From Clostridia bacterium (lineage in GTDB: Bacteria; Bacillota; Clostridia; Oscillospirales; CAG-382), in assembly GCA_017447445.1 (NCBI GenBank), contig JAFSNK010000019.1, positions 10,079-74,078 of the forward strand: 64,000 bases of DNA. The letters run 5' to 3'. Position numbers and translations under genes: made by a program. Each line of letters starts with the position of its first letter. Positions within the stretch are counted from its first letter, which is position 1. The notes below the pieces were generated by a model. The model was not told the origin of the DNA. It made no database searches and saw only the letters and a list, made by a program, of their open reading frames with translations. Shown here piece by piece: positions 6,291-59,610 of this stretch.

Positions 6291-6354
6291 GATGTTGCTT
6301 TTCCTGCGCGTAAAAAAGCATAATGAACACAAAAAGGTCGTCCCGGGAAATATA

Positions 6355-6383
6355 TTGACAGACTTATAAAGATGTTATATAAT
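6355..6383 (+). promoter_or_regulatory. consensus sigma-A promoter (TTGACA-17 nt-TATAAT)
   Basis: TTGACA at 6355-6360 and TATAAT at 6378-6383 with a 17-nt spacer, upstream of the low-GC lipoprotein gene. Confidence 0.65.
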
Positions 6384-6536
6384 TCTAGCGTAAAATATAA
6401 AATTAATTAAGAGGTAACGTTTATGCGCCAAAGAATATGTAGAGAACAATCCCGACGTGTATTCTACGTATTGGTGCAATAATTGCAAGGAAATTATTGC
6501 TGCCAACAAAAACAAATTTAATTGAGGTGCATAGTT

Positions 6537-8177
6537 ATGAAAAAGTATTATTATTTCCCGTTATTGTTGTGTATATTCATTTCAGCAACGTGCATATTAA
6601 ATGCATGCAGCAACGAAAAAAAGACAAATGACAATAGTACAGAAGAAATAAGTGTTGTTTCAACAAAGGATGATCCGCAAGCAAGCAGTTATATTGTTGA
6701 CAACCATAGCGAAGAGGATGACAAAAATGCATCTGACAGTTTTGAAACAGAGAATAGTGCAGAAGTAAAGGATCCGCAAGCAAGCAGTTATATTGTCGAC
6801 CACCTCAGCGAAGATGACAAGGATCCGGGAGACAGCTTTGCAATAGAAATAAAAAACGAAAACGCTATTTTTGAATACTCGCTGCAGGGTTTTATGGACA
6901 GGTTTTCTGATTTTGCGAAAGATAACGATAAAACCGCGGCATATAAGGATGTGTTTTTGTACGTCGCAAATAATAAAAACATGGATTTGATCGGCGCCCC
7001 GTTTTTTCATGTGACTTACGTACCTTCTATGACTGAATCGGGTGAAATGACCAAAGACAGCGCGTCGTTAGCATTTACATGGCGGCATAGGAATGATGAT
7101 TGCGAAATGTGTAAAAAATATTACGGTACACATTTTGGTCATGAAAGCATAAATCTTAAGATCGTTTTTAGGTTGAACGGAATAGATATAGATGGTGTAT
7201 TAACACGATCAGGGTTCGAAAAAACCGGGAAAAACGACTTGTACGTAAGTCATAAGCGGTCCGCGGACAGAGACTTGACATTCTATATATACATTTGCAG
7301 CAATCAGTACTATTTCATTTTCAGAGTAGAAGACAATATACCGAATAAACAACAAGCCGAAGAAATGTTTTATGCGCTTTGCCGTGATATCAGCGGATAT
7401 TTAAACAAATCGGATTACAGGTATATCAGCCGCGGAGACAAGCATTATATCGAGTTCGACGATTACGGCTATACCGCAAGCGGAAACGGTTCTTATGAAG
7501 CGTTCGATATGGCGGGGCTTCCTTTTAACAGCTTGTCGGAGCTGAAAGAAAAGGTTACCGGAAACGGTTTGACGGACGAAGAAAAGAATTTCATCAAAGA
7601 GCGAAAAGACCTTTTCACGGCGGACGAGAATGGAATTGCCGTATGTGATTTTGATAATCTACTGGAACCTGAAGTGCCGGAATCGCTTCTGCCGCTGGAG
7701 ATGGTCGGAGGCACGTGGGCGGGAGAACGCTATACCGCGGCATATGATTCGGGTAACGGCGTGCGCTTTTTGTTCGGATATTTTACGAAGGATATATTCG
7801 AAGCCCGCCTTGAATACGATACGCACGGCGTGATCGATTCGGCAAAGAACAGAGACGACTGCTCCGAAGTTACGTATGTCGACGGCGACGGGAATACGAC
7901 AACAACGGAATATTCGTTTGCCAAGGACGCCTCAAAGCAATACAAACACGTTGTGAAATCGGTTGCCGACGGTAAATACGACAGGACGATAGTTATAGAT
8001 TACGTCCGGGATATTGAAAAAAACGGTCGGGAAGCCGCGTATGAACCGACGCGCATGGAAATATTTATCACCGACGGCAGAAACTATATTTTTTATGAAT
8101 TCAGCGGAAAAGACGGTTTTGTTTTGCCCGGCGAATCAGAACTTCTTGATTATGGATTCAAAAAGTCCGATAATTGA
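6537..8177 (+). CDS. lipoprotein of unknown function (546 aa), low-GC gene
   Basis: The signal peptide plus lipobox reads MKKYYYFPLLLCIFISATCILNAC. A GAGGTG ribosome-binding site sits 7 nt before the ATG at 6537. An acidic tandem repeat follows the lipobox. No domain recognised. Confidence 0.8.
   Translation: MKKYYYFPLLLCIFISATCILNACSNEKKTNDNSTEEISVVSTKDDPQASSYIVDNHSEEDDKNASDSFETENSAEVKDPQASSYIVDHLSEDDKDPGDSFAIEIKNENAIFEYSLQGFMDRFSDFAKDNDKTAAYKDVFLYVANNKNMDLIGAPFFHVTYVPSMTESGEMTKDSASLAFTWRHRNDDCEMCKKYYGTHFGHESINLKIVFRLNGIDIDGVLTRSGFEKTGKNDLYVSHKRSADRDLTFYIYICSNQYYFIFRVEDNIPNKQQAEEMFYALCRDISGYLNKSDYRYISRGDKHYIEFDDYGYTASGNGSYEAFDMAGLPFNSLSELKEKVTGNGLTDEEKNFIKERKDLFTADENGIAVCDFDNLLEPEVPESLLPLEMVGGTWAGERYTAAYDSGNGVRFLFGYFTKDIFEARLEYDTHGVIDSAKNRDDCSEVTYVDGDGNTTTTEYSFAKDASKQYKHVVKSVADGKYDRTIVIDYVRDIEKNGREAAYEPTRMEIFITDGRNYIFYEFSGKDGFVLPGESELLDYGFKKSDN
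6672..6866 (+). repeat. tandem ~99-nt (33-codon) in-frame repeat inside the lipoprotein gene
   Basis: The 26-nt core gatccgcaagcaagcagttatattgt occurs at 6672-6697 and again at 6771-6796. At peptide level the units are DPQASSYIVDNHSEEDDKNASDSFE and DPQASSYIVDHLSEDDKDPGDSFA. Confidence 0.85.
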
Positions 8178-9413: not shown

Positions 9414-10091
9414 TCATATTTCGTATTCGGTATAGTCGTTCATAACTTTTTTTACGGGGGAAACGAAGCTTTGCGGCGAAATATCGTCCAGCAGACCGTA
9501 GTGCACCGGGACGGCGTGCTTCGCACGGCACGCCGACGCAAGCCTGGCCGCGTCCCCGGCGTTCATGTTGTTGCCGCGGCCGTTTATCGGCAGGAACACG
9601 TAATCCGCGTCCGACGGCGCGGTATCGTCCTTCAAAGCCGCGGGGTTGTAAAGCGTGTCTCCGGTGATATATACTTTTTTGCCGTCCGCTTCCAGCACGA
9701 ACCCGACTGCGTACGGATCGGAATGAAAAGCCGTTACGGTCTTAACGGTAACGCCGCCGCAGGTCCACTGCACCCCGGGCGAAACGAGCACGCAGTTGTT
9801 CCCGCCGCCCTGCAGCCGCGCCTTTTCCCAGACGCTGCGCGGCGCAAGCACGGTCGCCGCGGTTTTTTCGTTCACAAAGCGCGAAAAAGTTCCGGGATCG
9901 TAATGGTCTGTATGGTCGTGCGTAATAAGCACGATATCCGGCTTTATATCCCATACCCAGTCCGGCGCTTCGCTTTTGCGGTGAACGCCGGAAACGGCGA
10001 ACGCGCTGTCGGTAAAATACGGATCGACAAGTATTTTTGCGCTTCCTGCCGCGAACAGCAGCCCCGCCTGGCCGAGCCGTGTGACCTTCAT
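9414..10091 (-). CDS. MBL-fold metallo-hydrolase (candidate lactonase)
   Basis: HxHxDH motif ITHDHTDHYD and N-terminal MKVTRLGQAGLLF...ILVDPYF. The gene overlaps the upstream SDR gene by 4 nt. Confidence 0.75.
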   Translation of the reverse strand: MKVTRLGQAGLLFAAGSAKILVDPYFTDSAFAVSGVHRKSEAPDWVWDIKPDIVLITHDHTDHYDPGTFSRFVNEKTAATVLAPRSVWEKARLQGGGNNCVLVSPGVQWTCGGVTVKTVTAFHSDPYAVGFVLEADGKKVYITGDTLYNPAALKDDTAPSDADYVFLPINGRGNNMNAGDAARLASACRAKHAVPVHYGLLDDISPQSFVSPVKKVMNDYTEYEI

Positions 10092-10840
10092 CTGAAGTTG
10101 GCGCCGCCGTTTACGTCAAGCGTCGCGCCGGTTACGTATTTCGCCTCGTCGCTGGCGAGATATACCGCCGCCGCGCCCACGTCCGCGGGTTCGCCCAGAC
10201 CGAGCGGAATGTTCGCGCCCAGCTCCTTAACGCCTTCCTCGCCGTGAGTCTGCACCAGCAGTTCGGTGGCGATAAGCCCGGGGGCTATGGCGTTCACGGT
10301 TATGCCCAGAGGCGCCGCCGTGCGCGCCATGGATTTAACGATGCCGATCTGCCCGGCTTTGGTGGCGGCGTAATGAACGTGCCCGAACAGCGCGCCGCGT
10401 TCCGCCACGACCGAGGAGATGAATATTATCCTGCCGGATCTCTGATCGCGCATTATCTCCATCGCGCGTTTGCTGCAAAGCATACCGGAGGTGAGGTTGG
10501 TCTTTATTATCCTGTCCCAGTCCGCCTTGTCCATTTCGAAAATATTTTTATCCTGCGAGGTGCCCGCGCAGTTCACAAGGATATCCAGTCTGCCGAATTC
10601 CGCGATTATCTTTTCGAACATCGCGGCGACCTGATCCTCCTCGCTCACGTCTGCTTTGCACACCAGCACGCGGACTCCAAGGGCGCGCGCGTCGGCAGCC
10701 GTCTTTTCCGCCGCCGCCACGTTCCCGGCGCAGTTGATCACCACGTCGGCACCCTGCTTTGCAAAAGCCAGCGCTATCCCGCGGCCTATCCCGCGTGAAG
10801 AGCCCGTTACCAGCGCGATCTTACCCGTTAAATCAAACAT
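10088..10840 (-). CDS. SDR-family NAD(P)-dependent oxidoreductase (FabG-like)
   Basis: TGSSRGIGRGIA cofactor motif and a YAATKAG catalytic Y-x3-K. I use the internal ATG at 10840, which follows a GGAGG site. Confidence 0.85.
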   Translation of the reverse strand: MFDLTGKIALVTGSSRGIGRGIALAFAKQGADVVINCAGNVAAAEKTAADARALGVRVLVCKADVSEEDQVAAMFEKIIAEFGRLDILVNCAGTSQDKNIFEMDKADWDRIIKTNLTSGMLCSKRAMEIMRDQRSGRIIFISSVVAERGALFGHVHYAATKAGQIGIVKSMARTAAPLGITVNAIAPGLIATELLVQTHGEEGVKELGANIPLGLGEPADVGAAAVYLASDEAKYVTGATLDVNGGANFR

Positions 10841-12798
10841 GTCTGTACCTCCTGAGGCTTCATTGTTATTTCTTTTCCGCAAAGCGCAAAGCTCTGCTCG
10901 GTTTGCGTGTCGTTCCACAGCGTGTATATCTTTTCGTCCCCGTTAGCGAAACAGCCGCTTTTTACCCCTTCGGGTATCGTTTCCGGCCTGTCGTAAACGT
11001 AGCGCCCCTCATAGAAGAACCTGCGGTATTTTTCCTTTTCGGCAAGCAGGGCGCCTATCTTTTCGCCCAGATCGGGCAGCTCGCCGATATCCGTCCTGCC
11101 GCGCCAGGGCGAAACGTCCAGCCGGAAGCCGTGTATATAGGCGTTTTTAAGCGCTTCGTCGGTCCCGGGCTTGTCGTCGTGAACAAAACGGTCGGTCTGT
11201 ATTATCTCCGGGAAGGTGCGCATGAACATCTCCGGGAAACAGCCGGGCACGTATACCGCGCCGACCTGTATGCCGTGTATGTAGTGCACGTAGGGCAGGC
11301 ACATATCGTTCACCATCTCGGTGCCTATGGCTTTGCCCTTCGGGCAGTTGGCGTAAAGCTTTTTGAACGCTTCCACGCGCCAGATCTCGCATTCGTCGGG
11401 CCGCGCGCCGTGGAAGTGGTTTTCGTTGAAGCAGGGAAGCGGCGCCGCGCCGCCGATCTGGTCGAAGAACGCGGAATCCGCGCCGTAGGCGAACTTCATA
11501 TCCTCGTGCTCGACAAGTATTCTTTGCCATTCGTCGTTCGCCGGGCAAGCCGTTACGAATGATTTGTATCCGAACGCGCGCAGGGTGTTGCCGTCGTTGC
11601 CGAACCGATAGTGGTCGCGGTAATCGTTGCCGTCGATGTCTATGCGGCAGACGTCCTTTCCCACGGTCCGGTAGTAATCGGTGTTCACGTCTATAAGCTG
11701 GCCGTTGGTGTAAAGCGCTGTGTATCCGCCCATCGCCTGCACTTCGGCAATGGCTTTTTTAAGCGCCTCCGCGCCGCCCAGACCGTCGTCCGGCTCGTAA
11801 ACCGGATATCCGTTGTCGAACCTGCCCTTCCACCAGCCGAAGACCATTATCATATTCAGTCCGCGCTCCGCGCCGGCTTTATATATCTTCGGCAGGTCGG
11901 CATAGCCGTAGTTCTTTTCGCCGAACTGGTGGCGCAGTATCACGCGCTGCCAGCCGGTAACGTTTTTGACCCATTCCGGGACCTCCGGCGCTTTGAACCA
12001 GTGCGAGCGCGCGTAATTGCCGTAAATATCCGAACCCTTCGTCCAGTCGCCCTCGCACAACGCGGTGAAACAGGGCGAGACCTCCGCGCATTCGCCTTTT
12101 TTAACGAACGGGAAGTGCGATATCGTGAACATAAACCGCGGCGCGGCCTTGCGCGGGGAAACTCCCGCCGCCATAGCGCAGACTTTAAGCTTGTCGTCGT
12201 GCCTGCCCATATAAAAGAACTTTCCGCCCGTTTCCAGTCCGAACCAGCTCATCGCCGCATCGCCGGGATAGCGCATCGTGTTCCATATAACGTGATTGTC
12301 GGAGGCGATGTATTCGGTGTGGCACACCTGCTTTATGCGCTCCCACGGGTTCCTGGTCTTCCAGCCGAGCCCGTTCGCTTGGTAAAGCACGTCGTCTTCG
12401 CGGTTTTCTCCGCAGCCGTGCGCAAGGTCGACGAACGGAAGCTGCAGCTCGTTCACACGCGCGTCCCCGCGGTTTTCGATCTCCGCGCGGAATTCGAACC
12501 CCGGGTAAGTCGAAACGCGTTTCGCGACGGTCACGGTGAGCTTCACGTCGAAAACGCGGCCGTTAACGCCTTTCAACGAATCGTAAACGACGGTTATCAC
12601 GTCGCCTTCGAGCGTTGCTTTGCCGCGCTGGCCGGAGGAATCCACGCGCATCTCGCGCTCGTAGCCGTCGTCCAGATAGGCGCGCCAGAAATCCGCCCCG
12701 GGGCTGACTTCCAAAGCCGTCCCCTCCGCGATCCAGCGGTGCGCGCCCGCGTCCTCGCTTATTTCAAAAACAAGATTTCCCGATCTGAGTGAGAGCAT
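10828..12798 (-). CDS. uncharacterised 656-aa protein, possibly a glycoside-hydrolase-like TIM-barrel (DUF-type)
   Basis: The ATG at 12798 follows AAGGAG. Segments such as MIMVFGWWKGRFDNGYPVYEPDDGLGG and GADSAFFDQIGG recall GH-like barrels. I cannot assign the family with certainty. Confidence 0.6.
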   Translation of the reverse strand: MLSLRSGNLVFEISEDAGAHRWIAEGTALEVSPGADFWRAYLDDGYEREMRVDSSGQRGKATLEGDVITVVYDSLKGVNGRVFDVKLTVTVAKRVSTYPGFEFRAEIENRGDARVNELQLPFVDLAHGCGENREDDVLYQANGLGWKTRNPWERIKQVCHTEYIASDNHVIWNTMRYPGDAAMSWFGLETGGKFFYMGRHDDKLKVCAMAAGVSPRKAAPRFMFTISHFPFVKKGECAEVSPCFTALCEGDWTKGSDIYGNYARSHWFKAPEVPEWVKNVTGWQRVILRHQFGEKNYGYADLPKIYKAGAERGLNMIMVFGWWKGRFDNGYPVYEPDDGLGGAEALKKAIAEVQAMGGYTALYTNGQLIDVNTDYYRTVGKDVCRIDIDGNDYRDHYRFGNDGNTLRAFGYKSFVTACPANDEWQRILVEHEDMKFAYGADSAFFDQIGGAAPLPCFNENHFHGARPDECEIWRVEAFKKLYANCPKGKAIGTEMVNDMCLPYVHYIHGIQVGAVYVPGCFPEMFMRTFPEIIQTDRFVHDDKPGTDEALKNAYIHGFRLDVSPWRGRTDIGELPDLGEKIGALLAEKEKYRRFFYEGRYVYDRPETIPEGVKSGCFANGDEKIYTLWNDTQTEQSFALCGKEITMKPQEVQTCLI

Positions 12799-12883
12799 AT
12801 CATTCTCCTTTAGGAAATTATGGTTCTTTTGTGATTCTACCACGAAAAAACGGCTTTTTCAACTTTTTTATAAAAAGATGTTG

Positions 12884-12912
12884 TTGACACGGAATAACTT
12901 TTGTGCGATAAT
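12884..12912 (+). promoter_or_regulatory. sigma-A promoter (TTGACA-17-GATAAT, extended -10 TG)
   Basis: TTGACA at 12884-12889 and TGcGATAAT ending at 12912, about 30 nt before the ribosome-binding site of gene 12944. Confidence 0.55.
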
Positions 12913-12943
12913 CGGCTCATAAGTATCAAAAAGGAGCGATTTT

Positions 12944-13969
12944 ATGAACTTTGAAAACAAATTCGCGCGGTTTATGCGCAATTCCGGTCCGGCGAGGTTC
13001 TTCGTCCCCGCGGGGCTCGTGTTTATTCTGGCGGGCGTACTGCTTTTATGCTTCGCCAGCGGCGATTATCTGGAGACCTCCGGCGTAGTCACCAAGGTCA
13101 CGGAGTCGGAAGGTTACGATACCGAGGGTCATCCGGAGACACTGTACGATATCGAGTTCACCTACAAGACCGCCGACGGCAGCGAATATTCCTCCTCGTT
13201 CCCGGGGATGAACGAAAAGAGATCGGTCGGCGACAAGATAAAGGTGTTTTACGATTCGAAAGAGCCCGAAAAGACCTCGAACACCAAATCCGGCAAGATC
13301 GTCGCCATAGCGGCGTTCGCGCTCGGCGCGGCGGCGCTCGCCTACGGCGTTTACGCCACGGTAAAGGCGTTCAAAAAGAGCAAGTCGCTCGGCAGCGCGT
13401 CTTTCCCCTCCGCCGCGTTCGATAACTACCGCGAAAACCCCGGGGTGAAGGAATACTACGTCCGCTTCGACGGACACGGGTTAAAGCCGGGGTATATAAT
13501 CGAGGACGCCGAAAGGAATGTACTCTTCGAGGGCAAGATGCTTAAAAACGCGCTCGTCGGCGCCCGCACCTACGAATTCAACGACCATCTCAACGGCAAG
13601 GTGACGCGGCACGAAGTCGGGCACACCGTTACGCAGAGGTATAACGACGAATTCTTCTCCGCCAAATCGTGGTTCAAGTTCGACGGCAAAAACGTCTGGG
13701 ACCTCCTGCACGAAAAGGGCTTCCGCATAAATAACAACGCCCGCAGCAAGTTCCCCTATATGGTCTACGAGATAGCCAAAGACGGTACGGCGTTCGCCCT
13801 GCTTGAATCAAGCGGGATGTACGTCCACGAGGACGAGGCGGAGCAGCACAAGTTCAACGTCCCCACCGGAAGCCATTTTTACCGCGTCTGGACGGCGACG
13901 GGCGACCTGCATTCGCTGTTCCTTAATATATTCGCGATCTCGGAAACCGAGCAGACTTTTGTGGAATAA
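12944..13969 (+). CDS. DUF3592-like membrane protein with a C-terminal beta-rich domain
   Basis: Layout is a TM helix (FFVPAGLVFILAGVLLLCF), a beta segment (GVVTKV...YDIEFTYKTADG...GDKIKVFYD) and a second TM helix (IVAIAAFALGAAALAYGVYA), typical of DUF3592. An unknown domain of about 190 aa follows. Confidence 0.7.
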   Translation: MNFENKFARFMRNSGPARFFVPAGLVFILAGVLLLCFASGDYLETSGVVTKVTESEGYDTEGHPETLYDIEFTYKTADGSEYSSSFPGMNEKRSVGDKIKVFYDSKEPEKTSNTKSGKIVAIAAFALGAAALAYGVYATVKAFKKSKSLGSASFPSAAFDNYRENPGVKEYYVRFDGHGLKPGYIIEDAERNVLFEGKMLKNALVGARTYEFNDHLNGKVTRHEVGHTVTQRYNDEFFSAKSWFKFDGKNVWDLLHEKGFRINNNARSKFPYMVYEIAKDGTAFALLESSGMYVHEDEAEQHKFNVPTGSHFYRVWTATGDLHSLFLNIFAISETEQTFVE

Positions 13970-14006
13970 ACCGAAAAAGCGGCGCGTAAAATAATACGCG
14001 ATCCTA

Positions 14007-14035
14007 TTGACAAACCGAAAAATCCGTGATATAAT
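14007..14035 (+). promoter_or_regulatory. consensus sigma-A promoter (TTGACA-17-TATAAT)
   Basis: TTGACA at 14007-14012 and TATAAT at 14030-14035, with TG two nt upstream of the -10. It drives the T-box leader. Confidence 0.7.
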
Positions 14036-14048
14036 CACGCACGATAAA

Positions 14049-14288
14049 GGCTTTGACAAGGACAAGGGGCAAAGCATAACCGGTTCCAGAGAGCCGCCGG
14101 GCGGTGCGAGGCGGTATCGGCGCTGCGCCTTATCACCTTCGAGCCGCGCGCCCGAAACGGGTTTTCGGATTAAGGCGCGCCGGAGTTTCCGCCGTAATAA
14201 AGGGAAGTGCGTCGCGTGCGCTGCAAATGAGTGGTATAATGAACGCTTTTGCGCTTCATCTCGTTGCGAGGTGAAGCGCTTGCTTTTT
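14049..14288 (+). promoter_or_regulatory. T-box riboswitch leader (apparent AUC/Ile specifier) with terminator/antiterminator
   Basis: - Stem I: AGAGAG bulge at 14088-14093 and a CCGCC/GGCGG distal hairpin with a GGUGCGA loop.
- Specifier: AUC-A at 14132-14135.
- Antiterminator: AAUGAG[UGGUAUA]AUGAACGC-UUUU-GCGCUUCAU-CUCGUU at 14226-14265.
- Competing terminator: 13-bp stem at 14251-14279 followed by UUGCUUUUU. Confidence 0.75.
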
Positions 14289-14335
14289 CAGGCGCCGCGG
14301 TTTCTGTTCCGGACAATCCGGGGAAAGGGCAAAAT

Positions 14336-16636
14336 ATGGATCAGCAGGTACAATTGATCGCCGCGCGTCTGCGCTGGGCGCGCGAGAATCTGGAGATCTC
14401 TCCGGCGGTAATGGCGGAGGCGAACGGAATAAGCGTGGAGGAATATCTGCGGCTGGAACGCGGCGAGGATGATTTTTCGTTCTCGTTCCTGTTCAAGTGC
14501 GCGAACACGCTGGGAATGGATATTTCCGAGCTCGTCTCCGGCGCGGATCCCAAACTGAACTTCTATAATTTAACGCGCGCGGGCGGCGGTATGCTTATAA
14601 AGCGCGACAAGGAGTTCGATTACCGCCACGTCGCTCCGCTTTTGAAAAACCGCAAGAGCGAGCCGTTTATCGTTACCGCCAAATACGATAAAGACATTCA
14701 GGACAAGCCGATGCACCTCGCCACCCACCGCGGGCAGGAGTTCGATATGATCCTTTCCGGGCGGCTCAAAGTGCAGTTAGGCGAACATACTTATACGATG
14801 TACCCTGGCGACACGGTTTATTACGACAGCTCGCATCCGCACGGTATGATCGCCGTCGGCGGCGAGGACTGCACCTTCCTTGCCGTGGTCTACAAGGAGG
14901 GGGACGACGATCCGACGGGCGAACCGCTGGACCATTCCGCCGCGCCGACTCTCCCCGTGAGCGCGGACGATTACTCCGGCAGGATATACAAGAATTTCGT
15001 AAGCGAGACGACCGACGAAAACGGGCGGCTTGCCGGGATAAGCTTCCGCTGCGCGGACAACTTCAATTTCGCCTACGACGTGGTGGACGCGCTTGCCGAA
15101 AAATGCCCGGACAAACGCGCGCTTCTGTGGGTGGGCAACAACGGCGAGGAACGCGAGTTCACCTTTAAGGATATGGCGCGTATGTCCAACAAGGCGGCGA
15201 ACTACCTTGCGATGCTCGGCATAAAGCGGGGCGACAAGGTGATGCTCGTGCTTAAACGCCACTGGCAGTTCTGGGTTTGCATACTCGCGCTGCATAAGCT
15301 CGGCGCGATAGCAGTCCCGGCGACGAACCAGCTTGTGGAGCACGATTTCGAATACCGCTTCAACGTGGGCGAGATAAGCGCGATAATCTGCACCGGGGAC
15401 GGCAGCACCGCCGCGGAGGCGGAGCGCGCCGCCGCGCGCTGTCCTTCGTTGAAATACAAGATAATGGCGCACGGGATGCGTACCGGATGGGCGGATTTCG
15501 ACGGCTCGTTCGACAGGTTCTCCTCCAAGCTGGAGCGCGTGAAGACGCATAAGAACGATCCTTCGGTCATGTTTTTCACCTCCGGCACGACGGGATATCC
15601 CAAGCTCGCGATGCACAGCTTTACCTACCCGCTGGGGCATATCGTCACCGCGCGCTGGTGGCACTGCGCCGATCCGGAGGGGCTTCACCTCACCGTGGCG
15701 GACACCGGATGGGGCAAGGCGCTGTGGGGCAAGCTTTACGGGCAGTGGATGTGCGAAGGCGCGGTGTTCGTCTATGACTTCGACCGCTTCGACGCCGAAA
15801 AGCTGCTCCCGATGTTCTCGCGCTACAACATAACCACCTTCTGCGCGCCGCCCACGGTCTACCGCTTCCTTATAAGGCAGGACCTTTCGCGGTTCGACCT
15901 TTCTTCCGTGAAATACGCCACAATAGCGGGCGAAGCGCTTAACCCGGAGGTGTTCAACAAGTTCTACGAGGCGACGGGAGTCAAGCTTATGGAATCCTTC
16001 GGCCAGACCGAAACCACGCTCGCCGTCGGCAACCTCTACGGCACCGACCCGAAGCCGGGTTCGATGGGCAAGCCCAGCCCCGCCTTCGACGTGGATATAG
16101 TGCGTGAGGACGGCACGCCCGTCGACATAGGCGAGACCGGAGAGATAGTTATTCGCTACGATCCCGAAAACCCGCCCGTCGGGCTGTTTATCGGGTACTA
16201 CAAGAACGAGGAAGCCACGCGCGAGGTCATGCACGACGGCTTCTACCACACCGGCGACACCGCCTGGCGCGACGAGGACGGGCATTTCTGGTACGTCGGC
16301 AGGGTGGACGACGTTATCAAGTCCAGCGGCTACCGCATAGGCCCGTTCGAGATCGAAAGCGTTATCATGGAGCTGCCCTACGTGCTTGAATGCGCGATAA
16401 CCGGCGTTCCGGACGAAACGCGCGGGCAGGTCGTGAAAGCGACGGTCGTGCTCACGAAGGGCAAGGAGCCGTCCGAGGAGCTTGTGAAAGAGATACAGAA
16501 CTACGTAAAAACGCACACCGCGCCCTATAAATACCCGCGCCGCGTTGAGTTCGTCGAAAGCCTGCCGAAGACTATCTCGGGCAAGATCCGCCGCGCGGAG
16601 ATACGCAAAACCGATTATTCGCGCGGAAATAATTGA
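14336..16636 (+). CDS. fusion protein: XRE-type HTH + cupin + medium-chain (ACSM/MACS-type) AMP-forming acyl-CoA synthetase, 766 aa
   Basis: - HTH: ISPAVMAEANGISVEEYLRLERGE.
- Cupin: GQEFDMILSGRLKVQLGEHTYTMYPGDTVYYDSSHPHGM.
- Adenylation motifs: FFTSGTTGYPK, FGQTETT, SSGYRIGPFEIES and SGKIRR.
- Start: ATG at 14336, because the track start at 14249 lies inside the terminator. Confidence 0.85.
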   Translation: MDQQVQLIAARLRWARENLEISPAVMAEANGISVEEYLRLERGEDDFSFSFLFKCANTLGMDISELVSGADPKLNFYNLTRAGGGMLIKRDKEFDYRHVAPLLKNRKSEPFIVTAKYDKDIQDKPMHLATHRGQEFDMILSGRLKVQLGEHTYTMYPGDTVYYDSSHPHGMIAVGGEDCTFLAVVYKEGDDDPTGEPLDHSAAPTLPVSADDYSGRIYKNFVSETTDENGRLAGISFRCADNFNFAYDVVDALAEKCPDKRALLWVGNNGEEREFTFKDMARMSNKAANYLAMLGIKRGDKVMLVLKRHWQFWVCILALHKLGAIAVPATNQLVEHDFEYRFNVGEISAIICTGDGSTAAEAERAAARCPSLKYKIMAHGMRTGWADFDGSFDRFSSKLERVKTHKNDPSVMFFTSGTTGYPKLAMHSFTYPLGHIVTARWWHCADPEGLHLTVADTGWGKALWGKLYGQWMCEGAVFVYDFDRFDAEKLLPMFSRYNITTFCAPPTVYRFLIRQDLSRFDLSSVKYATIAGEALNPEVFNKFYEATGVKLMESFGQTETTLAVGNLYGTDPKPGSMGKPSPAFDVDIVREDGTPVDIGETGEIVIRYDPENPPVGLFIGYYKNEEATREVMHDGFYHTGDTAWRDEDGHFWYVGRVDDVIKSSGYRIGPFEIESVIMELPYVLECAITGVPDETRGQVVKATVVLTKGKEPSEELVKEIQNYVKTHTAPYKYPRRVEFVESLPKTISGKIRRAEIRKTDYSRGNN

Positions 16637-16655
16637 AATTTTTTAAAAATTGCTC

Positions 16656-16684
16656 TTGATTTTTGGAATTTCGTGTGTTATAAT
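16656..16684 (+). promoter_or_regulatory. sigma-A promoter for rplS (TTGATT-17-TATAAT, extended -10)
   Basis: TTGATT at 16656-16661 and TGtTATAAT ending at 16684. It leaves a 5' UTR of about 70 nt, the position where L19 autoregulatory leaders occur in Firmicutes. I did not verify such a leader here. Confidence 0.65.
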
Positions 16685-16755
16685 AAACCGCTAAATATCG
16701 GGCGGTCCTCTGCGGCTCAGCAAGAACGCTACGAAGAAAACGGAGGTAAACAGCT

Positions 16756-17097
16756 TTGGATATGTTAAAAGCTTTTACAGATGAGCAGCTTAAAAAAGAG
16801 GTTCCCGCGTTCAACATCGGCGATACCGTTAAAGTTCACCAGAGAATAGTCGAAGGAACCAGAGTCAGAACACAGATCTTTGAAGGGACGGTCATCGCCA
16901 AGAAAAACGGCGGGATCTCCGAGACTTTCACAGTAAGAAGAGTTTCCTACGGCGTCGGTACCGAAAAGACCTTCCCGCTTCACTCTCCGAACGTGCAGGC
17001 TGTCGAGGTTGTCAGAGCCGGTAAGGTCCGCCGCGCAAAGCTTTATTATCTGCGCGAGAGAGTCGGCAAATACGCCAAAGTCAAAGAAAAAATCTAA
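16756..17097 (+). CDS. rplS: 50S ribosomal protein L19
   Basis: [60 protein letters not shown]...[10 protein letters not shown]. The start is either TTG at 16756 or ATG at 16762. Confidence 0.95.
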
Positions 17098-17187
17098 CAG
17101 ACTCACGGGTGCCTGCTTTACGCGGGCACTTTTGCTATTTTGCATATTATTGCATATTATTCTGAAGTACGTTTTACAGAGGTCATT

Positions 17188-17931
17188 ATGTCGGACGAAA
17201 TGAATCACAGCGGCGCTTCACGCGGCGCGGAAACAGAAAACGCATCCTACGAGCCCGCGTTCACCGCCGCGGAAATAACGCCGGTGCGCGCGGAAGAAGC
17301 GCCGGATTGCGCCGCCGCGGTACCCGGCGAGGGCGCGGAAGAAAGCGAAAAAAAGGAAAAACGCGGGGCGCTCCAAACGGTCTTCGATTATTTCGAGACC
17401 TTCTGTTTCGCCGTCGCGCTTATGATGGTGCTTTTGCTTTTCGTGTTCCGCTACGTTTCGGTGGACGGCAGCTCCATGCGCGAAACGCTGCACGACAGGG
17501 ACAAGCTTATAATCTCCAACCTGTTCTACACCCCCAAGACCGGAGATATCGTGGTGGTGAACCCCGAAAATCACTCCCCGTCCGATAATCCTATAATAAA
17601 GCGCGTCATCGCCACCGGGGGGCAGAAGGTATATATCGATTACGCCAACTGGGAAGTATACGTCGACGGCGTTAAGCTCGACGAGCCGTATATCAACGCC
17701 ATGCGCGAGGAAGAACGGCGGCGCTACGGCGAGGGAGTCGGTATGTCGAAGGGCGACGTGCCGCGTTTCCAGCGCGAATTCACGGTGGAAGACGGCAAGG
17801 TTTTCGTGATGGGCGACAACCGCAACAACTCGCACGACAGCCGCTACGCCGATTACGGCGAGATCGGGGTGAACCGCATACTCGGCAGGGTGCTTTTCCG
17901 CGTGTTCCCCGACTTCGGCGCGGTGGAGTAA
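17188..17931 (+). CDS. lepB: signal peptidase I
   Basis: Catalytic boxes VDGSSMRETL, IIKRVIATGG and VMGDNRNNSHDSRY, with a TM helix FCFAVALMMVLLLFVF. I use the internal ATG at 17188. Confidence 0.9.
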   Translation: MSDEMNHSGASRGAETENASYEPAFTAAEITPVRAEEAPDCAAAVPGEGAEESEKKEKRGALQTVFDYFETFCFAVALMMVLLLFVFRYVSVDGSSMRETLHDRDKLIISNLFYTPKTGDIVVVNPENHSPSDNPIIKRVIATGGQKVYIDYANWEVYVDGVKLDEPYINAMREEERRRYGEGVGMSKGDVPRFQREFTVEDGKVFVMGDNRNNSHDSRYADYGEIGVNRILGRVLFRVFPDFGAVE

Positions 17932-17937
17932 ACAAAG

Positions 17938-18804
17938 ATGAACGAGCTTACTCAGGACATACACTGGTATCCCGGGCATATGGCGAAGGCGAAGCGCAGA
18001 ATAATCGAAGCGCTTCCGAACATCGACATGGTGATAGAACTGCTCGACGCGCGCGCGCCGCTTTCCAGCCGCAACCCGGATTTTAAGGAAATATTCAAAA
18101 ACAAACCCGTGCTCACGCTGCTTACCAAAAGCAATCTTGCGGACAGGAACGCCACGGCGGGGTTCCTGCGCGCCCTTTCGGGCGAAAACGCGCGCGCGCG
18201 CGCCATCGACTGCAAGACCGGGTACGGGATAAAGGACATTTCCGCAAGCATAAACGAGCTTATGGCGGAAAAACTCGCCCGGGACGCGGCGAGAGGGATA
18301 AAACGCCCGGTCCGCGCCATGGTCGCGGGGATAACCAACGTGGGCAAATCCACGTTTATAAACACGCTCTGCGGGCAGAAAAAAGCCGCCGCGGCGGACA
18401 AACCCGGCGTCACGCGGCAGAACGCCCGCGTTTCTGTCCCTTCGCTCGGGATCGAATTGACCGACACGCCGGGGCTTTTGTGGCACAAATTCGACGACCG
18501 CGAGGTGGGGATAAAGCTCGCCTGCCTCGGCTCGATAAACGACGATATTTTAGACGTATGGGGGCTCGCGCTGGAGCTTTTGAACATTCTAAAAGCGCGC
18601 TACCCGCAGTGCGTAACGGCAAGGTACGGCGTCCCGGCTTCACCGGAGGACGACGTGAACGCGCTGTTTGAAAGCATCGCCAAAAAGCGCGGCTTCATCC
18701 GCGCGGGCGGCGTTATCGACGAGGAACGCGCCGCGAGCGTGATCCTGGACGAGTTCCGCGCCGGAAAAATCGGACAAATAACTTTGGACAGAATCACTCA
18801 ATAA
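17938..18804 (+). CDS. rbgA: ribosome biogenesis GTPase A (YlqF/RbgA)
   Basis: IHWYPGHMAKAKR and a circularly permuted GTPase layout (LLTKSNL ... GITNVGKST ... LTDTPG). Confidence 0.9.
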   Translation: MNELTQDIHWYPGHMAKAKRRIIEALPNIDMVIELLDARAPLSSRNPDFKEIFKNKPVLTLLTKSNLADRNATAGFLRALSGENARARAIDCKTGYGIKDISASINELMAEKLARDAARGIKRPVRAMVAGITNVGKSTFINTLCGQKKAAAADKPGVTRQNARVSVPSLGIELTDTPGLLWHKFDDREVGIKLACLGSINDDILDVWGLALELLNILKARYPQCVTARYGVPASPEDDVNALFESIAKKRGFIRAGGVIDEERAASVILDEFRAGKIGQITLDRITQ

Positions 18805-18956
18805 CGGATAATTACGGTTGAAAAAGCGAATAGTTATTTCTTCCAAACGTTTTTTCGATATACTCAAACGTTTTTTTGTTGAAGGCGGGAGCTCGCGGCG
18901 AAAACCGCGGAAATATCCGCCCGGGGGCGCGTGCCCCGGAGACGACGGAGGTGTTT

Positions 18957-19589
18957 ATGGCAACTCAATTAAGCTGGGAAACCGAATTTTCGTTCCGCAC
19001 GGACGGCGCGGCGATAGTCTGCGGCTGCGACGAAGCAGGGCGCGGTCCGCTTGCCGGGCCGGTGTTCGCCGCGGCGGTCATACTGCCGGACGGAATGGTG
19101 ATCGAAGGATTGAACGATTCCAAAAAGCTAAGCGAAAAAAAGCGCGAGGAGCTTTACGACGAGATACGCGCCAAGTGTATCGACTGCGCCGTCGCCCACG
19201 CGGAGGTGTACGAGATAGAGGCGATAAACATCCTTAACGCCTCGATGCTCGCGATGCGCCGCGCCATCGCGCTGCTGCGGGTAAAGCCGGAGCTCGCGCT
19301 TATCGACGGCAACGTTGCGCGCGATTTCACCATACCCGCCAAACCCGTTATAAAAGGGGACGGAAAATGCCCCTCCATAGCCGCCGCCTCCATTCTGGCA
19401 AAGGTGGAAAGGGACAGATTCTGCCGCGAGCTGGACGGCTTTTACCCCGAATACGGCTTTGCGGCGCACAAGGGCTACGCCACAAAGGCGCATATCGCGG
19501 CGATAAGGAAATACGGCCCCTGTCCCGCGCACAGGATAAGCTTTTTAAGAAAAGTGCTTAAAGATGCCGAACAACAAAACCTTATATAA
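18957..19589 (+). CDS. rnhB: ribonuclease HII
   Basis: CGCDEAGRGPLAGPVFAAAVIL, DSKKLSEKKRE and SIAAASILAKV. The ATG at 18957 follows GGAGG. Confidence 0.9.
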   Translation: MATQLSWETEFSFRTDGAAIVCGCDEAGRGPLAGPVFAAAVILPDGMVIEGLNDSKKLSEKKREELYDEIRAKCIDCAVAHAEVYEIEAINILNASMLAMRRAIALLRVKPELALIDGNVARDFTIPAKPVIKGDGKCPSIAAASILAKVERDRFCRELDGFYPEYGFAAHKGYATKAHIAAIRKYGPCPAHRISFLRKVLKDAEQQNLI

Positions 19590-20031
19590 AGCGCCCCGCG
19601 CAGCAGGCATGCGCGGCGGTTTCAGCGCGAAAAAGTTCGGCGCCGCGGGCGAGGATATCGCCGCCGCGTACCTGAAAAAACACGGCTGGCGCGTGGTCGC
19701 GCGGAACTACGCCGAAAACGGCGGGGAAATAGATATTATCGGCTATAAGCGCGGGAAATTAACGTTTTTCGAGGTGAAAACGCGCTCCAACGAAACGTTC
19801 GGCAGGCCCGCCGACGCGGTCGGCGCGGAAAAGACGGCGCGCATAAAAAAAGCGGCGCGCTCCTTCCGCGCGGAATGTATGCGCGGCGGAAAAGTCCCCG
19901 TGCCGTTCTTTTTCGGGAAAACACTATACCGCCGGGTATATAAAAAATCGGTGGATATAATAGAAATAATGCTTACGCACGGCGGGGAACTGCTGGAACT
20001 GAATCACATCAAGGACGTCGAAGAATTATGA
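19564..20031 (+). CDS. yraN: YraN-family (UPF0102) endonuclease-like protein
   Basis: GEDIAAAYLKKHGWRVVARNY...GEIDIIGYKRGKLTFFEVKTR. The start is ambiguous between the ATG at 19564 and the ATG at 19609. Confidence 0.8.
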   Translation: MPNNKTLYKAPRAAGMRGGFSAKKFGAAGEDIAAAYLKKHGWRVVARNYAENGGEIDIIGYKRGKLTFFEVKTRSNETFGRPADAVGAEKTARIKKAARSFRAECMRGGKVPVPFFFGKTLYRRVYKKSVDIIEIMLTHGGELLELNHIKDVEEL

Positions 20032-21545
20032 AACCGGATATCAAAGAATTATACCGACTGCACCGCCTTGCCCTTGACGTTCGTTACGTCAGCACCCGCG
20101 GGGAAGGCAAAAAGCATTCCGCCGCGGAGGTAATAAAAAAAGGGCTCGCCGACGACGGCGGGCTTTTCGTGCCGGAACGCTTTTTCCCTCTTCTTACCGA
20201 AGACCTTTTAGAAGAGCTTTGCGGTTTCGATTACGCCGACCGCGCGGCGTTCATACTTTCGCGCTTCCTGCCGGATTATAAGTTTGCGGATCTGCTCGAC
20301 GCGGCGCGCGCCGCGTATTCCGCGGAAAAATTCGGCGGTCCCGCCGCGCCTATCGCGCGGGTGGGGAGCGACTATCTTCTGGAGCTGTGGCACGGACCGA
20401 CGAGCGCTTTTAAGGATATGGCGCTGCAGATAATGCCGCGCCTGCTCTCGCTCGCGCTGGATATCACCGGAGAATGCCGGGACGCGTATATACTCGTCGC
20501 CACCAGCGGCGACACCGGGAAAGCCGCCCTGGAGGGCTACAGGGACGTTCCGCGCGTAAAAATAAAGGTGTTCTACCCGGTAAACGGCGTTTCGAACATT
20601 CAGAAAAAGCAGATGAGCTCGCAGACCGGCGAAAACGTCGACGTGGTGGCGATAAACGGCAACTTCGACGACGCGCAGACCGGAGTGAAGCGCATTTTCT
20701 CGGACGAAAACTGCCGCTTCGAGCTCGCGCAGAAGGGCTGGTTCTTCTCCAGCGCGAACTCCATAAACTGGGGCAGGCTCGTCCCGCAGATCGTCTATTA
20801 TATCTCCGCCTACTGCGACCTGCTCAAAGAAAAACAGATAAAGCCCGGCGAGAAGATAGATATAGTCGTCCCGACCGGCAACTTCGGCAATATATTCGCC
20901 GCCTACGCCGCAAAGCAGATGCTGCTGCCCGTGGGCCGGCTGGTGTGCGCCTCCAACCGCAACGACGTGCTCGCCGATTTCATAAACACCGGCGTTTACG
21001 ATAAACGGCGCGAGTTCTTCACCACCGTTTCGCCCTCGATGGACATTCTTGTTTCCAGCAACCTGGAACGCCTGCTGTATTGGAAGTTCGGCGCGCCCGC
21101 AGCCGCCGGGTTTATGAAAGAGCTTGCCCAAAACGGTTTTTATAAGCTGAACGGAGATCAGCTCGCCGCCGTGCAAAGCGATTTTTCGGGCTTTTCCTGC
21201 ACCGAGGAGGAGACGAAAGCCGTTATCGCCGCGACGTTCAAAAAATACGGCTATCTTTGCGATACTCACACCGCCGTCGCGCTCGGCTGCGCGGAAAAAT
21301 ACCGCGCGTCGGCTGAATATACCGGAGGCAAGCTGCTTATCGCCTCCACCGCGTCGCCCTATAAGTTCGCGCCCGCGGTGCTTTCCGCGCTGGGCGAACC
21401 CGTCCCGGCGGACGACTTCGCGGCGCTCGACAAGCTGCACGAGGTAACCAAGGTCCCCGTGCCGGGCAATCTCGCCGGCTTAAAAGATGCCCCCGTGCGC
21501 TTTACCGAGACGGTCGGTCCCGCGGATATGCAAAAAACGCTTTAG
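20028..21545 (+). CDS. thrC: threonine synthase (long form)
   Basis: The PLP-lysine motif LWHGPTSAFKDMALQ and VATSGDTGKAA are present. The start forms an ATGA overlap with the yraN stop. Confidence 0.9.
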   Translation: MKPDIKELYRLHRLALDVRYVSTRGEGKKHSAAEVIKKGLADDGGLFVPERFFPLLTEDLLEELCGFDYADRAAFILSRFLPDYKFADLLDAARAAYSAEKFGGPAAPIARVGSDYLLELWHGPTSAFKDMALQIMPRLLSLALDITGECRDAYILVATSGDTGKAALEGYRDVPRVKIKVFYPVNGVSNIQKKQMSSQTGENVDVVAINGNFDDAQTGVKRIFSDENCRFELAQKGWFFSSANSINWGRLVPQIVYYISAYCDLLKEKQIKPGEKIDIVVPTGNFGNIFAAYAAKQMLLPVGRLVCASNRNDVLADFINTGVYDKRREFFTTVSPSMDILVSSNLERLLYWKFGAPAAAGFMKELAQNGFYKLNGDQLAAVQSDFSGFSCTEEETKAVIAATFKKYGYLCDTHTAVALGCAEKYRASAEYTGGKLLIASTASPYKFAPAVLSALGEPVPADDFAALDKLHEVTKVPVPGNLAGLKDAPVRFTETVGPADMQKTL

Positions 21546-21553
21546 AAAAGGAA

Positions 21554-21643
21554 TTGCCGGGGCGCAAACACCGGCAAAACGCTTTGATTTTTGTTTTTAA
21601 AGTTTTTCGGGGTTCCGGACCGTTTTTTCAAAAAAGGTCCGGA
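21554..21643. terminator. two hairpins between convergent thrC and the DUF1540 gene
   Basis: TTGCCGG-N10-CCGGCAA at 21554-21577, and TCCGGACC-gttttttcaaaaaa-GGTCCGGA at 21614-21643. Confidence 0.55.
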
Positions 21644-21682
21644 CGGAGCGCGAGGCGGAGCCTCGCATAATAACCCGAATAA

Positions 21683-21874
21683 TCAAAAACTTTTCGGCTT
21701 GAACGTCGCGCAGACGGTCTGCGTGCTGTTCGTCGCGGCGGCGGGGCCGACGGCGATCTTTTCCGCCGTGCAGTAGTGAACTCCGTCGTGGTAGGCGCAG
21801 TTCTTAACGCTGCAGCTTATGCCGCGGTTGTGCTTCGGCGCGCGGTTAAAGGATATCGCGTCCGTAAAAAACAC
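21683..21874 (-). CDS. DUF1540-domain small Cys-rich protein
   Basis: ISCSVKNCAYHDGVHYCTAEKIAVGP...CATFKPK, the Cys pattern typical of DUF1540. Confidence 0.75.
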   Translation of the reverse strand: MFFTDAISFNRAPKHNRGISCSVKNCAYHDGVHYCTAEKIAVGPAAATNSTQTVCATFKPKSF

Positions 21875-21938
21875 CTCTTTCCGTTTTTGTTTTTATTATT
21901 TGCACAAAACGGGAAAAATATTTGCAAAGGAACTTCAA

Positions 21939-22667
21939 ATGGCTCTTTACACTATCGCGGACCTGCATCTTTCCTATACGTCCAACAAGCCGATGGATAT
22001 ATTCGGCCCGAAGTGGGAAAACCACGCCGAGCGCCTGCGCGCGAACTGGCAATCCGTCGTTTCGCCCGGGGATACGGTTGTTATCGCGGGGGACGTTTCG
22101 TGGGGGATGCGCATCGGCGACGCTTCGGCGGATCTGCAGTTCATAGAATCGCTGAACGGCAAAAAAATAATCGCCAAGGGCAACCACGATTTCTGGTGGG
22201 GCACCATGAAAAAGCTTTACGAGCTGCGCGATTCGATCGGCGCGCAAAGCATAGATTTTCTGTTCAACAACGCCTATTACGAGCAGGGCTTTATCATCTG
22301 CGGCACGCGCGGCTGGTTCCCGGAATCGGCATACGGCCCGGAGGACGAAAAAATAGTGAACCGCGAAGCGGAACGGCTGCGCGCCTCGATACTCGCGGGG
22401 CTTAAAATAAAAGAAGAACACCCGGAAGCGGAGCTTCTGGCGTTCCTGCACTACCCGCCCGCCTACGGCGGAGTAAAATGCGGGCGTATCTGCGAAGTCC
22501 TGCGCGAATACGGGATAAAGCGCGTGTTCTACGGGCACATCCACAACGCGCAGAGATCTATGCTCGTGCACCAGACCGCGGGGGCGAAGCTCGTTCTTAC
22601 CGCGGCGGACAAGCTGGATTTCACACCGATGAGGATAGAGAGGGAAGGGATATGCACGATATCGTGA
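21939..22667 (+). CDS. metallophosphoesterase (calcineurin-like)
   Basis: MALYTIADLHLSY, VIAGDVSWG, AKGNHDFWW and FLHYPP match the DxH / GD / GNHD / H motifs. I use the internal ATG at 21939. Confidence 0.8.
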   Translation: MALYTIADLHLSYTSNKPMDIFGPKWENHAERLRANWQSVVSPGDTVVIAGDVSWGMRIGDASADLQFIESLNGKKIIAKGNHDFWWGTMKKLYELRDSIGAQSIDFLFNNAYYEQGFIICGTRGWFPESAYGPEDEKIVNREAERLRASILAGLKIKEEHPEAELLAFLHYPPAYGGVKCGRICEVLREYGIKRVFYGHIHNAQRSMLVHQTAGAKLVLTAADKLDFTPMRIEREGICTIS

Positions 22668-59521: not shown

Positions 59522-59610
59522 TGGCGGACAGGGTGGGATTCGAACCCACGTGCGCTTGCGCGCAAACTGATTTCGAGTCAGCCCCGTTATGACCGCTTCG
59601 ATACCTGTCC
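59522..59610 (-). tRNA. tRNA-Ser (anticodon CGA), class II with a long variable arm and encoded CCA
   Basis: Reverse complement: GGACAGG-TA-TCGAAGCGGTCATAACGG-GGCTGA-CT[CGA]AA-TCAGT-TTGCGCGCAAGCGCAC-GTGGG-TTCGAAT-CCCAC-CCTGTCC-G-CCA. All four arms fold by hand. Confidence 0.9.

Follow-up and report, generated by a model that had tools for sequence, protein, structure and literature searches.

Organization of the Locus

The window analyzed here is a stretch of 64,000 nucleotides (64 kb) from contig JAFSNK010000019.1 of a member of the Clostridia. Between positions 14007 and 16636 it contains a promoter, a T-box leader RNA, an intrinsic terminator, and a gene whose predicted product joins an N-terminal helix-turn-helix (HTH)-cupin module to an adenosine monophosphate (AMP)-forming acyl-coenzyme A (acyl-CoA) synthetase. 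All of these features lie on the forward (+) strand and are arranged as follows:

14007..14035 (+): sigma-70-type promoter (TTGACA, 17-nt spacer, TATAAT) with an extended -10 TG; 12 of 12 positions match, and the promoter is kept in close relatives
14044..14266 (+): T-box leader with Stem I, predicted Stem II, Stem IIA/B, and Stem III, and the antiterminator; full-length match to RF00230
14049..14145 (+): Stem I; 65.5 bits (E 4.5e-13) with our own model R1
14049-14051 and 14143-14145 (+): base helix of Stem I, GGC paired with GCC
14052-14057 and 14140-14142 (+): kink-turn (K-turn), UUUGAC opposite CGA
14058-14061 and 14136-14139 (+): Stem I helix, AAGG paired with CCUU
14088-14093 (+): AG bulge, AGAGAG
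14093-14115 (+): distal hairpin of Stem I with the 11-nt distal loop GGGCGGUGCGA at 14099-14109
14132-14134 (+): specifier AUC (isoleucine, Ile), followed by A at 14135; same slot as the Rfam consensus codon
14226..14265 (+): antiterminator, fold of -9.8 kcal/mol, with the 7-nt T-box bulge UGGUAUA at 14232-14238
14251..14289 (+): intrinsic terminator, a 13-bp stem (14251-14279) and then the U-rich tail UUGCUUUUUC
14336..16636 (+): regulated gene from ATG to stop codon, 766 amino acids; XRE-type HTH, cupin, and MACS/MbcS-type AMP-forming acyl-CoA synthetase

The original prediction, made from the letters of the sequence, had described a T-box leader with an Ile specifier upstream of an acyl-CoA synthetase gene, and had named a search with the Rfam T-box model and an alignment of orthologous leaders as ways to check it. 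With an E-value threshold, the Rfam model RF00230 matched positions 14044-14266 over model positions 1-219 with 72.2 bits (E 7.7e-16), and a family-specific model (R1, described below) detected a single Stem I element in the window, at 14049-14145. In an Rfam scan of the whole window at the gathering threshold only a tRNA was reported; default annotation misses the T-box because its score lies below 93 bits, the curated gathering score of RF00230 in Rfam 15. The promoter, the base of Stem I, the K-turn, the AAGG/CCUU helix, and the AGAGAG bulge were all recovered as predicted. The distal loop had been read as GGUGCGA, but is the 11-nt loop listed above.

The antiterminator folds exactly as had been claimed. 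Its 3' half is also the 5' arm of the terminator, and the two folds compete for this shared strand, in agreement with their predicted mutual exclusion. The terminator fold has a free energy of -22.3 kcal/mol (z = -4.6), and none of 200 shuffled sequences was as stable. The T-box sequence AAAUGAGUGGUAUA at 14225-14238 contains a UGGU that is complementary to the 3' ACCA end of a tRNA and fits an A73 discriminator base. The intervening Stem II-III region (14146-14225) was aligned by the Rfam model; folded alone, it was no better than shuffled sequences (z = 0.01). The window leader is a genuine T-box, predicted to be of the canonical transcription-attenuating type, and its RNA anatomy points to tRNA-Ile as the ligand to which it would respond.

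Conservation of the Leader

When each species was represented by a single genome, a scan yielded 80 orthologous loci in metagenome-assembled genomes of gut and rumen Clostridia, which belong to the Oscillospiraceae, Acutalibacteraceae, Christensenellaceae, and Ruminococcus. Nearly every copy of the synthetase gene in these loci is preceded by the AGAGA and T-box motifs at the correct spacing. The Stem I regions of 75 orthologous leaders were aligned, and the canonical architecture was specified by hand and then tested. In this alignment 90.5% of the cells were paired and compensatory changes occurred in 20 of the 21 base pairs, values that were reached by none of 500 shuffles, while slid registers paired at 28-53%. 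RNAalifold applied to a MAFFT alignment recovered the distal hairpin alone, and the full Stem I needed explicit specification. A covariance model built from the 75-leader Stem I alignment and searched across the 80 loci found 101 Stem I elements, each of them followed by a T-box bulge motif, and the UGGU form of this motif dominates in the family.

The terminator of seven relatives was 84% paired with compensatory changes in 6 of 13 pairs, and the outer helix of the antiterminator, which was 90.5% paired, is nearly invariant and gave no covariation signal among the seven close relatives. When the Rfam model was applied to a sample of 14 orthologous leaders, all were recognized as full-length T-boxes with 82-118 bits; the Rfam 15 gathering score leaves roughly half of the relatives undetected, as it does the window leader. 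A low score might also be expected of a decayed or chance T-box-like sequence without regulatory function, and the close relative L082 indeed has CGGU in place of UGGU. In this relative (82% identical; bulge region 9940-9960) the terminator is shortened as well, and its leader may be decaying. For the window leader such an explanation is very improbable in view of the E-value of 7.7e-16 over the full RF00230 model, the intact promoter, antiterminator, and terminator, and the conservation with compensatory changes among orthologous leaders, which score 82-118 bits.

Specifier Codon

Alignment to the family covariance model gave the following specifiers for the 101 Stem I elements:

AUC (Ile): 58 leaders
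GUA (valine, Val): 30 leaders
GUC (Val): 4 leaders
CUC (leucine, Leu): 4 leaders
CUG (Leu): 3 leaders
unassignable: 2 leaders

A heuristic combining regular expressions and pairing misfired on approximately 15 leaders, and the covariance-model alignment was used instead. Within the specifier loop of the window leader the codon is on the 3' side, and a single base separates it from the closing helix (AUC-A-CCUU, 14132-14139). AUC does not vary among the 58 orthologous leaders or among six relatives closer to the window (proteins 73-82% identical), which retain AUCACCUUCGAG with variable flanks; over the whole set U, C, G, and A all occur directly 5' of the codon, and A, C, and G directly 3' of it. 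Read in this register, sister leaders at these loci carry Val or Leu codons, and in the 14-leader sample the Rfam model, independently of the family model, assigns identical codons to its consensus slot.

If the specifier were mis-registered, the leader would sense another tRNA, for example the one for UCA (serine), UAU (tyrosine), or UUA (Leu). Such an error could be suspected from the compact and atypical specifier loop, and from the base after the codon, where roughly half of the Ile-class leaders have C in place of a purine. However, this alternative is highly improbable, because both flanking bases vary around an invariant AUC, because a frame shifted from the one that gives GUA/GUC and CUC/CUG in the sister leaders would produce UAG in the Val class, and because the register obeys the rule of the T-box database TBDB (PMC7778990). 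The Ile assignment had been regarded as the weakest link of the original prediction. Upheld by the Rfam alignment, the family covariance model, and its conservation, it has turned out to be the best-supported part, and at the level of sequence it is the most secure element of the present analysis.

The Regulated Protein

The protein encoded downstream of the leader is composed of the following parts:

residues 1-213 (window 14336-14975): N-terminal HTH-cupin module
residues 12-66: HTH_3 (XRE-type), Pfam 27.2 bits, cutoff 23
residues 130-185: Cupin_2, Pfam 45.7 bits, cutoff 27.2
residues 254-609: AMP-binding, Pfam 210.7 bits
residues 254-762: synthetase part as a whole, including AMP-binding_C with Pfam 81.5 bits

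The AMP-binding domains agree with the acyl-CoA synthetase that had been predicted as target, but the HTH-cupin module had been overlooked, as had the paralogous Val class described below; the protein is a fusion and not a plain synthetase. Uncultured Clostridia have more than 100 homologs in which this three-part fusion is kept at full length. The best NCBIfam match of the synthetase is MbcS (NF047394) with 457.4 bits, which misses the equivalog cutoff of 850, and on this score the window protein is classified as a relative of MbcS and not as an MbcS ortholog. The best match in the PDB, covering residues 213-762 with an E-value of 3e-198, is the enzyme MacsMa (3ETC). MacsMa prefers 2-methylbutyrate as substrate; it adenylates C3-C8 acids and completes the reaction solely with 2-methylbutyrate (PMC10455477). 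MbcS activates 2-methylbutyrate and isobutyrate, hardly isovalerate, and its physiological role is the supply of fatty-acid primers (PMC10026030). By analogy with these characterized relatives, the window synthetase probably converts exogenous 2-methylbutyrate to 2-methylbutyryl-CoA. The fusion to an HTH-cupin module suggests a combined enzyme and regulator similar to BirA. A regulatory role of the module remains as an explanation that would add to the enzymatic role of the protein and does not compete with it.

Ile and Val Classes of Synthetase Paralogs

Two tandem full-length paralogs were found in approximately 23 of the 80 loci, and in these pairs the upstream gene stands under an Ile leader and the downstream gene under a Val leader. 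The proteins are split in the same way as their leaders: the nearest neighbor belonged to the same specifier class in 84 of 84 labelled proteins, and the neighbor-joining tree placed all 30 Val-class proteins in one clade without any Ile-class member. This clade also includes two leaderless copies, each of which is the second gene in its operon. Clustering by the unweighted pair group method with arithmetic mean was uninformative, with the window protein as an outlier, whereas the neighbor-joining tree separated the classes.

Within the 80-locus set the residue that separates the classes most sharply lies in the motif DTGW[G/A]K: every Ile-class protein has Gly there (Gly460 in the window protein) and every Val-class protein has Ala. 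MacsMa has Gly at the discriminating position (DSGWGK). That the smaller residue goes with the larger acid would fit C5 versus C4 substrates and is suggestive. As an absolute class marker the residue failed when the comparison was extended beyond the 80-locus set to four more Ala-type homologs, which are considered further below.

Genomic Context

In at least 17 of the 80 loci (flanks of 3 kb were covered) the last synthetase gene is followed, with a small gap or none, by a series of genes for a P-loop ATPase and a VorB-type 2-oxoacid:ferredoxin oxidoreductase (VOR), in this order:

1: ParA/MinD/Mrp-like P-loop ATPase, approximately 220 amino acids (e.g., L033:5283-5954 and L037:2715-3380, and 15 other loci)
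2: 70-amino-acid protein with 2×[4Fe-4S], ferredoxin-like delta subunit
3: VorB-type alpha subunit, NCBIfam NF005507 (3-methyl-2-oxobutanoate dehydrogenase, ferredoxin-dependent), 550 bits, cutoff 399
4: thiamine pyrophosphate-binding beta subunit

Ile-class and Val-class genes alike occur immediately before this series. In all 17 loci the P-loop ATPase is located between the synthetase and the VOR genes, and it may serve in the delivery of iron-sulfur clusters to VOR. Two loci contain an extra complete T-box between the synthetase and the P-loop ATPase/VOR genes (L069:5339-5438(+) and L056:3010-3109(+)), with the loop ...AUCUG[C/A]AU; the standard register gives the mutually discordant codons GCA and GAA, and CUG is present in both.

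In seven loci the region immediately upstream of the Ile gene holds a Leu T-box in reverse orientation, which drives a divergent gene for a LeuA-like protein with HMGL-like and LeuA_dimer domains. These Leu T-boxes, with the specifiers CUC or CUG and 111-118 Rfam bits, are located as follows:

L064:2305-2529(-)
L077:2327-2552(-)
L053:2286-2522(-)
also in L080, L071, L038, and L047

The LeuA-like protein has the N-terminal motif ISDMTMKQ, which looks degenerate beside the DTTLRDGEQ-type motif that would be expected there.

A further context was found in L081, a contig of 1.8 Mb, where an AUC T-box (99 bits) and an Ala-type synthetase gene are followed after 55 nt by ilvB-ilvN-ilvC-ilvD, and then by two leuA/cimA-like genes and leuC-leuD-leuB (region 9446-22283). 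Between the terminator and the start of the synthetase gene of this locus lie approximately 285 nt, including a called open reading frame (ORF) of 55 amino acids.

These contexts bear on the use to which the acyl-CoA is put. With the Ile T-box taken as real, the product could prime anteiso branched-chain fatty acids as it does with MbcS in Staphylococcus aureus, and induction under Ile limitation would then spare the isoleucine from which 2-methylbutyryl-CoA would otherwise be derived. MbcS is the best curated family match and has precisely this physiological role (PMC10026030), and the window gene stands alone with no oxidoreductase nearby. The role of a primer supplier is nevertheless unlikely for the synthetase family. 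Its genes share operons with a VorB-type oxidoreductase in the 17 loci and with ilv-leu genes in L081, they are adjoined by the LeuA-like gene under a Leu T-box, and the MbcS score of 457 is far from the equivalog cutoff. The oxidoreductase would act in the biosynthetic direction, since a VOR operon induced by starvation makes sense in no other way.

A route from propionate via 2-oxobutyrate to isoleucine is known in Clostridium sporogenes and in methanogens, and the Ile-class enzyme could be one that activates propionate, with propionyl-CoA converted to 2-oxobutyrate by reductive carboxylation and then to isoleucine by IlvBNCD. The Ile-T-box synthetase gene of L081 heads ilvB-ilvN-ilvC-ilvD, exactly the genes that 2-oxobutyrate needs, and the C3-C8 range of adenylation by MacsMa includes propionate (PMC10455477). 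In the same enzyme, however, the reaction is finished solely with 2-methylbutyrate (PMC10455477). Furthermore, Gly in the Ile class and Ala in the Val class would fit a C5 versus C4 pair and not C3 versus C4, and the existence of a Val paralog points to the branched-acid series. A function in propionate activation is quite unlikely on these grounds.

Proposed Mechanism

The reading that we consider reasonably probable is that a tRNA-Ile T-box controls an HTH-cupin-synthetase which activates 2-methylbutyrate for isoleucine synthesis via VOR-type carboxylation. Transcription would begin at the consensus promoter, and the AUC specifier in Stem I would dock tRNA-Ile. With this tRNA in the uncharged state, the unoccupied 3' ACCA would pair with UGGU and hold the antiterminator, and RNA polymerase would read into the gene; with the charged tRNA, the 13-bp terminator, which is the stronger of the two folds (-22 vs. 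-10 kcal/mol), would form and transcription would end. Limitation of Ile would in this way induce the synthetase and the conversion of 2-methylbutyrate to 2-methylbutyryl-CoA, which a VorB-type 2-oxoacid:ferredoxin oxidoreductase would carboxylate reductively to 2-oxo-3-methylvalerate, and transamination of the latter would yield isoleucine. The paralog under the Val T-box would use the same route starting from isobutyrate, and Leu could be supplied from 2-oxoisovalerate through the LeuA-like gene under the Leu T-box, which is consistent with the lack of a Leu-class synthetase and with the poor use of isovalerate by MbcS.

The conversion of 2-methylbutyrate to Ile had already been proposed in the original prediction. 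The proposal finds backing in the characterized relatives of the enzyme and in the VOR and ilv-leu contexts of other loci, while its oxidoreductase has no counterpart in the 64-kb window. A salvage pathway leading from the acid via the acyl-CoA and the 2-oxoacid to the amino acid is supported mainly by the gene context in related genomes. What the sequences show directly is the RNA anatomy, the specifier and its conservation, the split of the paralogs by specifier class, and the gene contexts; the response to tRNA, the substrate, the sense in which the oxidoreductase runs, and the task of the HTH-cupin module are inferred.

Several observations weigh against the proposed mechanism. At 72 bits the window leader scores below the Rfam gathering threshold, and no S-turn is obvious in its compact specifier loop. 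Because helix 2 of Stem I entered into the choice of the seed sequences, its pairing of 100% is partly circular; the other four Stem I helices played no part in this selection. No recognizable T-box was found upstream of the synthetase gene in the family members L085, which is of the Gly type, and L086, L087, and L088, which are of the Ala type, and T-box control is thus common, not universal, in the synthetase family. The Ala-type L081 carries an AUC T-box, and its ilv operon extends the family beyond organisms that are auxotrophic for branched-chain amino acids (BCAA). The synthetase gene is monocistronic in the window and in the closest relatives, and among the approximately 48 ORFs surveyed in the window no VOR, ilvE, or BCAA transporter gene was found.

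For uncultured gut and rumen Clostridia, a T-box-gated salvage can be envisaged in which each paralog (Ile or Val) is induced by its own tRNA in the uncharged form and, with the help of VOR and the P-loop ATPase from the same operon, turns the corresponding branched short-chain acid into the corresponding amino acid, and the fused HTH-cupin module forms a second transcriptional layer. We put this broader picture at somewhat less than an even chance.

Other Features of the Window

Threonine synthase (thrC) is encoded at 20028-21545 (+), approximately 3.4 kb downstream of the synthetase gene, and in L088 a thrC gene (5065-6552) follows immediately downstream of the synthetase gene. This proximity may reflect a loose link between threonine and isoleucine, or coincidence. 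A protein with cohesin and type I dockerin domains is encoded at 32332-33750 (+), and a similar gene adjoins the synthetase gene of L086. The cohesin/dockerin protein hints that the host is a fiber degrader that bears cellulosomes, and dependence on branched-chain acids is a classical trait of this guild. Nine long ORFs were called between 187 and 10798, and at E ≤ 1e-4 Pfam recognized none of them; the gene that follows, at 10828-12843 (-), codes for a DUF6259 protein. The former region could be poorly characterized or mobile, or the choice of ORFs could be wrong. The sole tRNA gene in the window, coding for tRNA-Ser(CGA) at 59522-59610 (-), is unrelated to the T-box finding.

Significance

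The leader RNA belongs to a known family, and what appears to be new is the class of its target and the three-way pattern of Ile, Val, and Leu specifiers around one gene neighborhood. No mention of acyl-CoA synthetases was found in the T-box surveys Wels 2008 and Sun 2013 or in the TBDB paper (PMC7778990). A full-text search found no literature linking a T-box to an acyl-CoA synthetase, VOR, or reductive carboxylation; the tables of TBDB and RegPrecise lay outside this search, and an earlier listing is possible. In the searchable papers there was likewise no description of the genes and the regulation of the activation step for branched acids.

It has been known since the 1960s that fiber-degrading Firmicutes of the rumen and gut need or use isobutyrate and 2-methylbutyrate, and supplements of branched-chain volatile fatty acids are in use in ruminant nutrition. 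If the proposed mechanism is true, it would provide the first gene-level and regulatory account of this classical requirement, and the specifier codon would be a built-in label of substrate specificity: AUC would directly assign a synthetase to the route from 2-methylbutyrate to Ile, and GUA or GUC to the route from isobutyrate to Val. The tRNA-specific switch could then serve as a marker that predicts which uncultured organisms turn fermentation acids into essential amino acids. The findings also extend the T-box regulon to acyl-CoA synthetases and draw attention to a widespread, uncharacterized fusion of regulator and enzyme.

Comparison with Known Systems

The window leader resembles the Ile T-boxes of ileS and ilv-leu (RF00230) in the K-turn, specifier loop, AG bulge, and distal loop of Stem I as well as in the UGGN bulge and the competing terminator, with Stem II, Stem IIA/B, and Stem III as predicted further elements, and its AUC obeys the "C-rule" for T-box specifiers. 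It differs from them in the compact specifier loop that has no clear S-turn, in a score under the Rfam cutoff, and in its target, where an acyl-CoA synthetase fusion takes the place of the usual aminoacyl-tRNA synthetases, classical biosynthetic enzymes, and transporters.

Among the relatives of the protein, MacsMa of Methanosarcina acetivorans (3ETC) is the closest solved homolog and shares the Gly of the discriminating motif, but is archaeal and has neither an HTH-cupin module nor a T-box. MbcS of S. aureus, whose range of 2-methylbutyrate and isobutyrate parallels the Ile and Val classes and the absence of a Leu class, likewise is without an HTH-cupin module and has no known T-box, and it feeds fatty-acid primers. 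The N-terminal residues 1-190 have the same two-domain architecture as the XRE-type HTH and cupin regulators (PuuR-like; 1Y9Q) at weak similarity (E 0.002); unlike in PuuR-like regulators the module is covalently joined to an enzyme, and its DNA binding is putative. With regard to 2-ketoisovalerate:ferredoxin oxidoreductase (VOR) and the reductive carboxylation by which rumen anaerobes make BCAA from branched-chain acids, the window contains no VOR, and the direction assigned to the enzyme would follow from the regulatory logic, whereas in the 17 related loci the alpha, beta, and delta subunits are encoded directly downstream of the synthetase.

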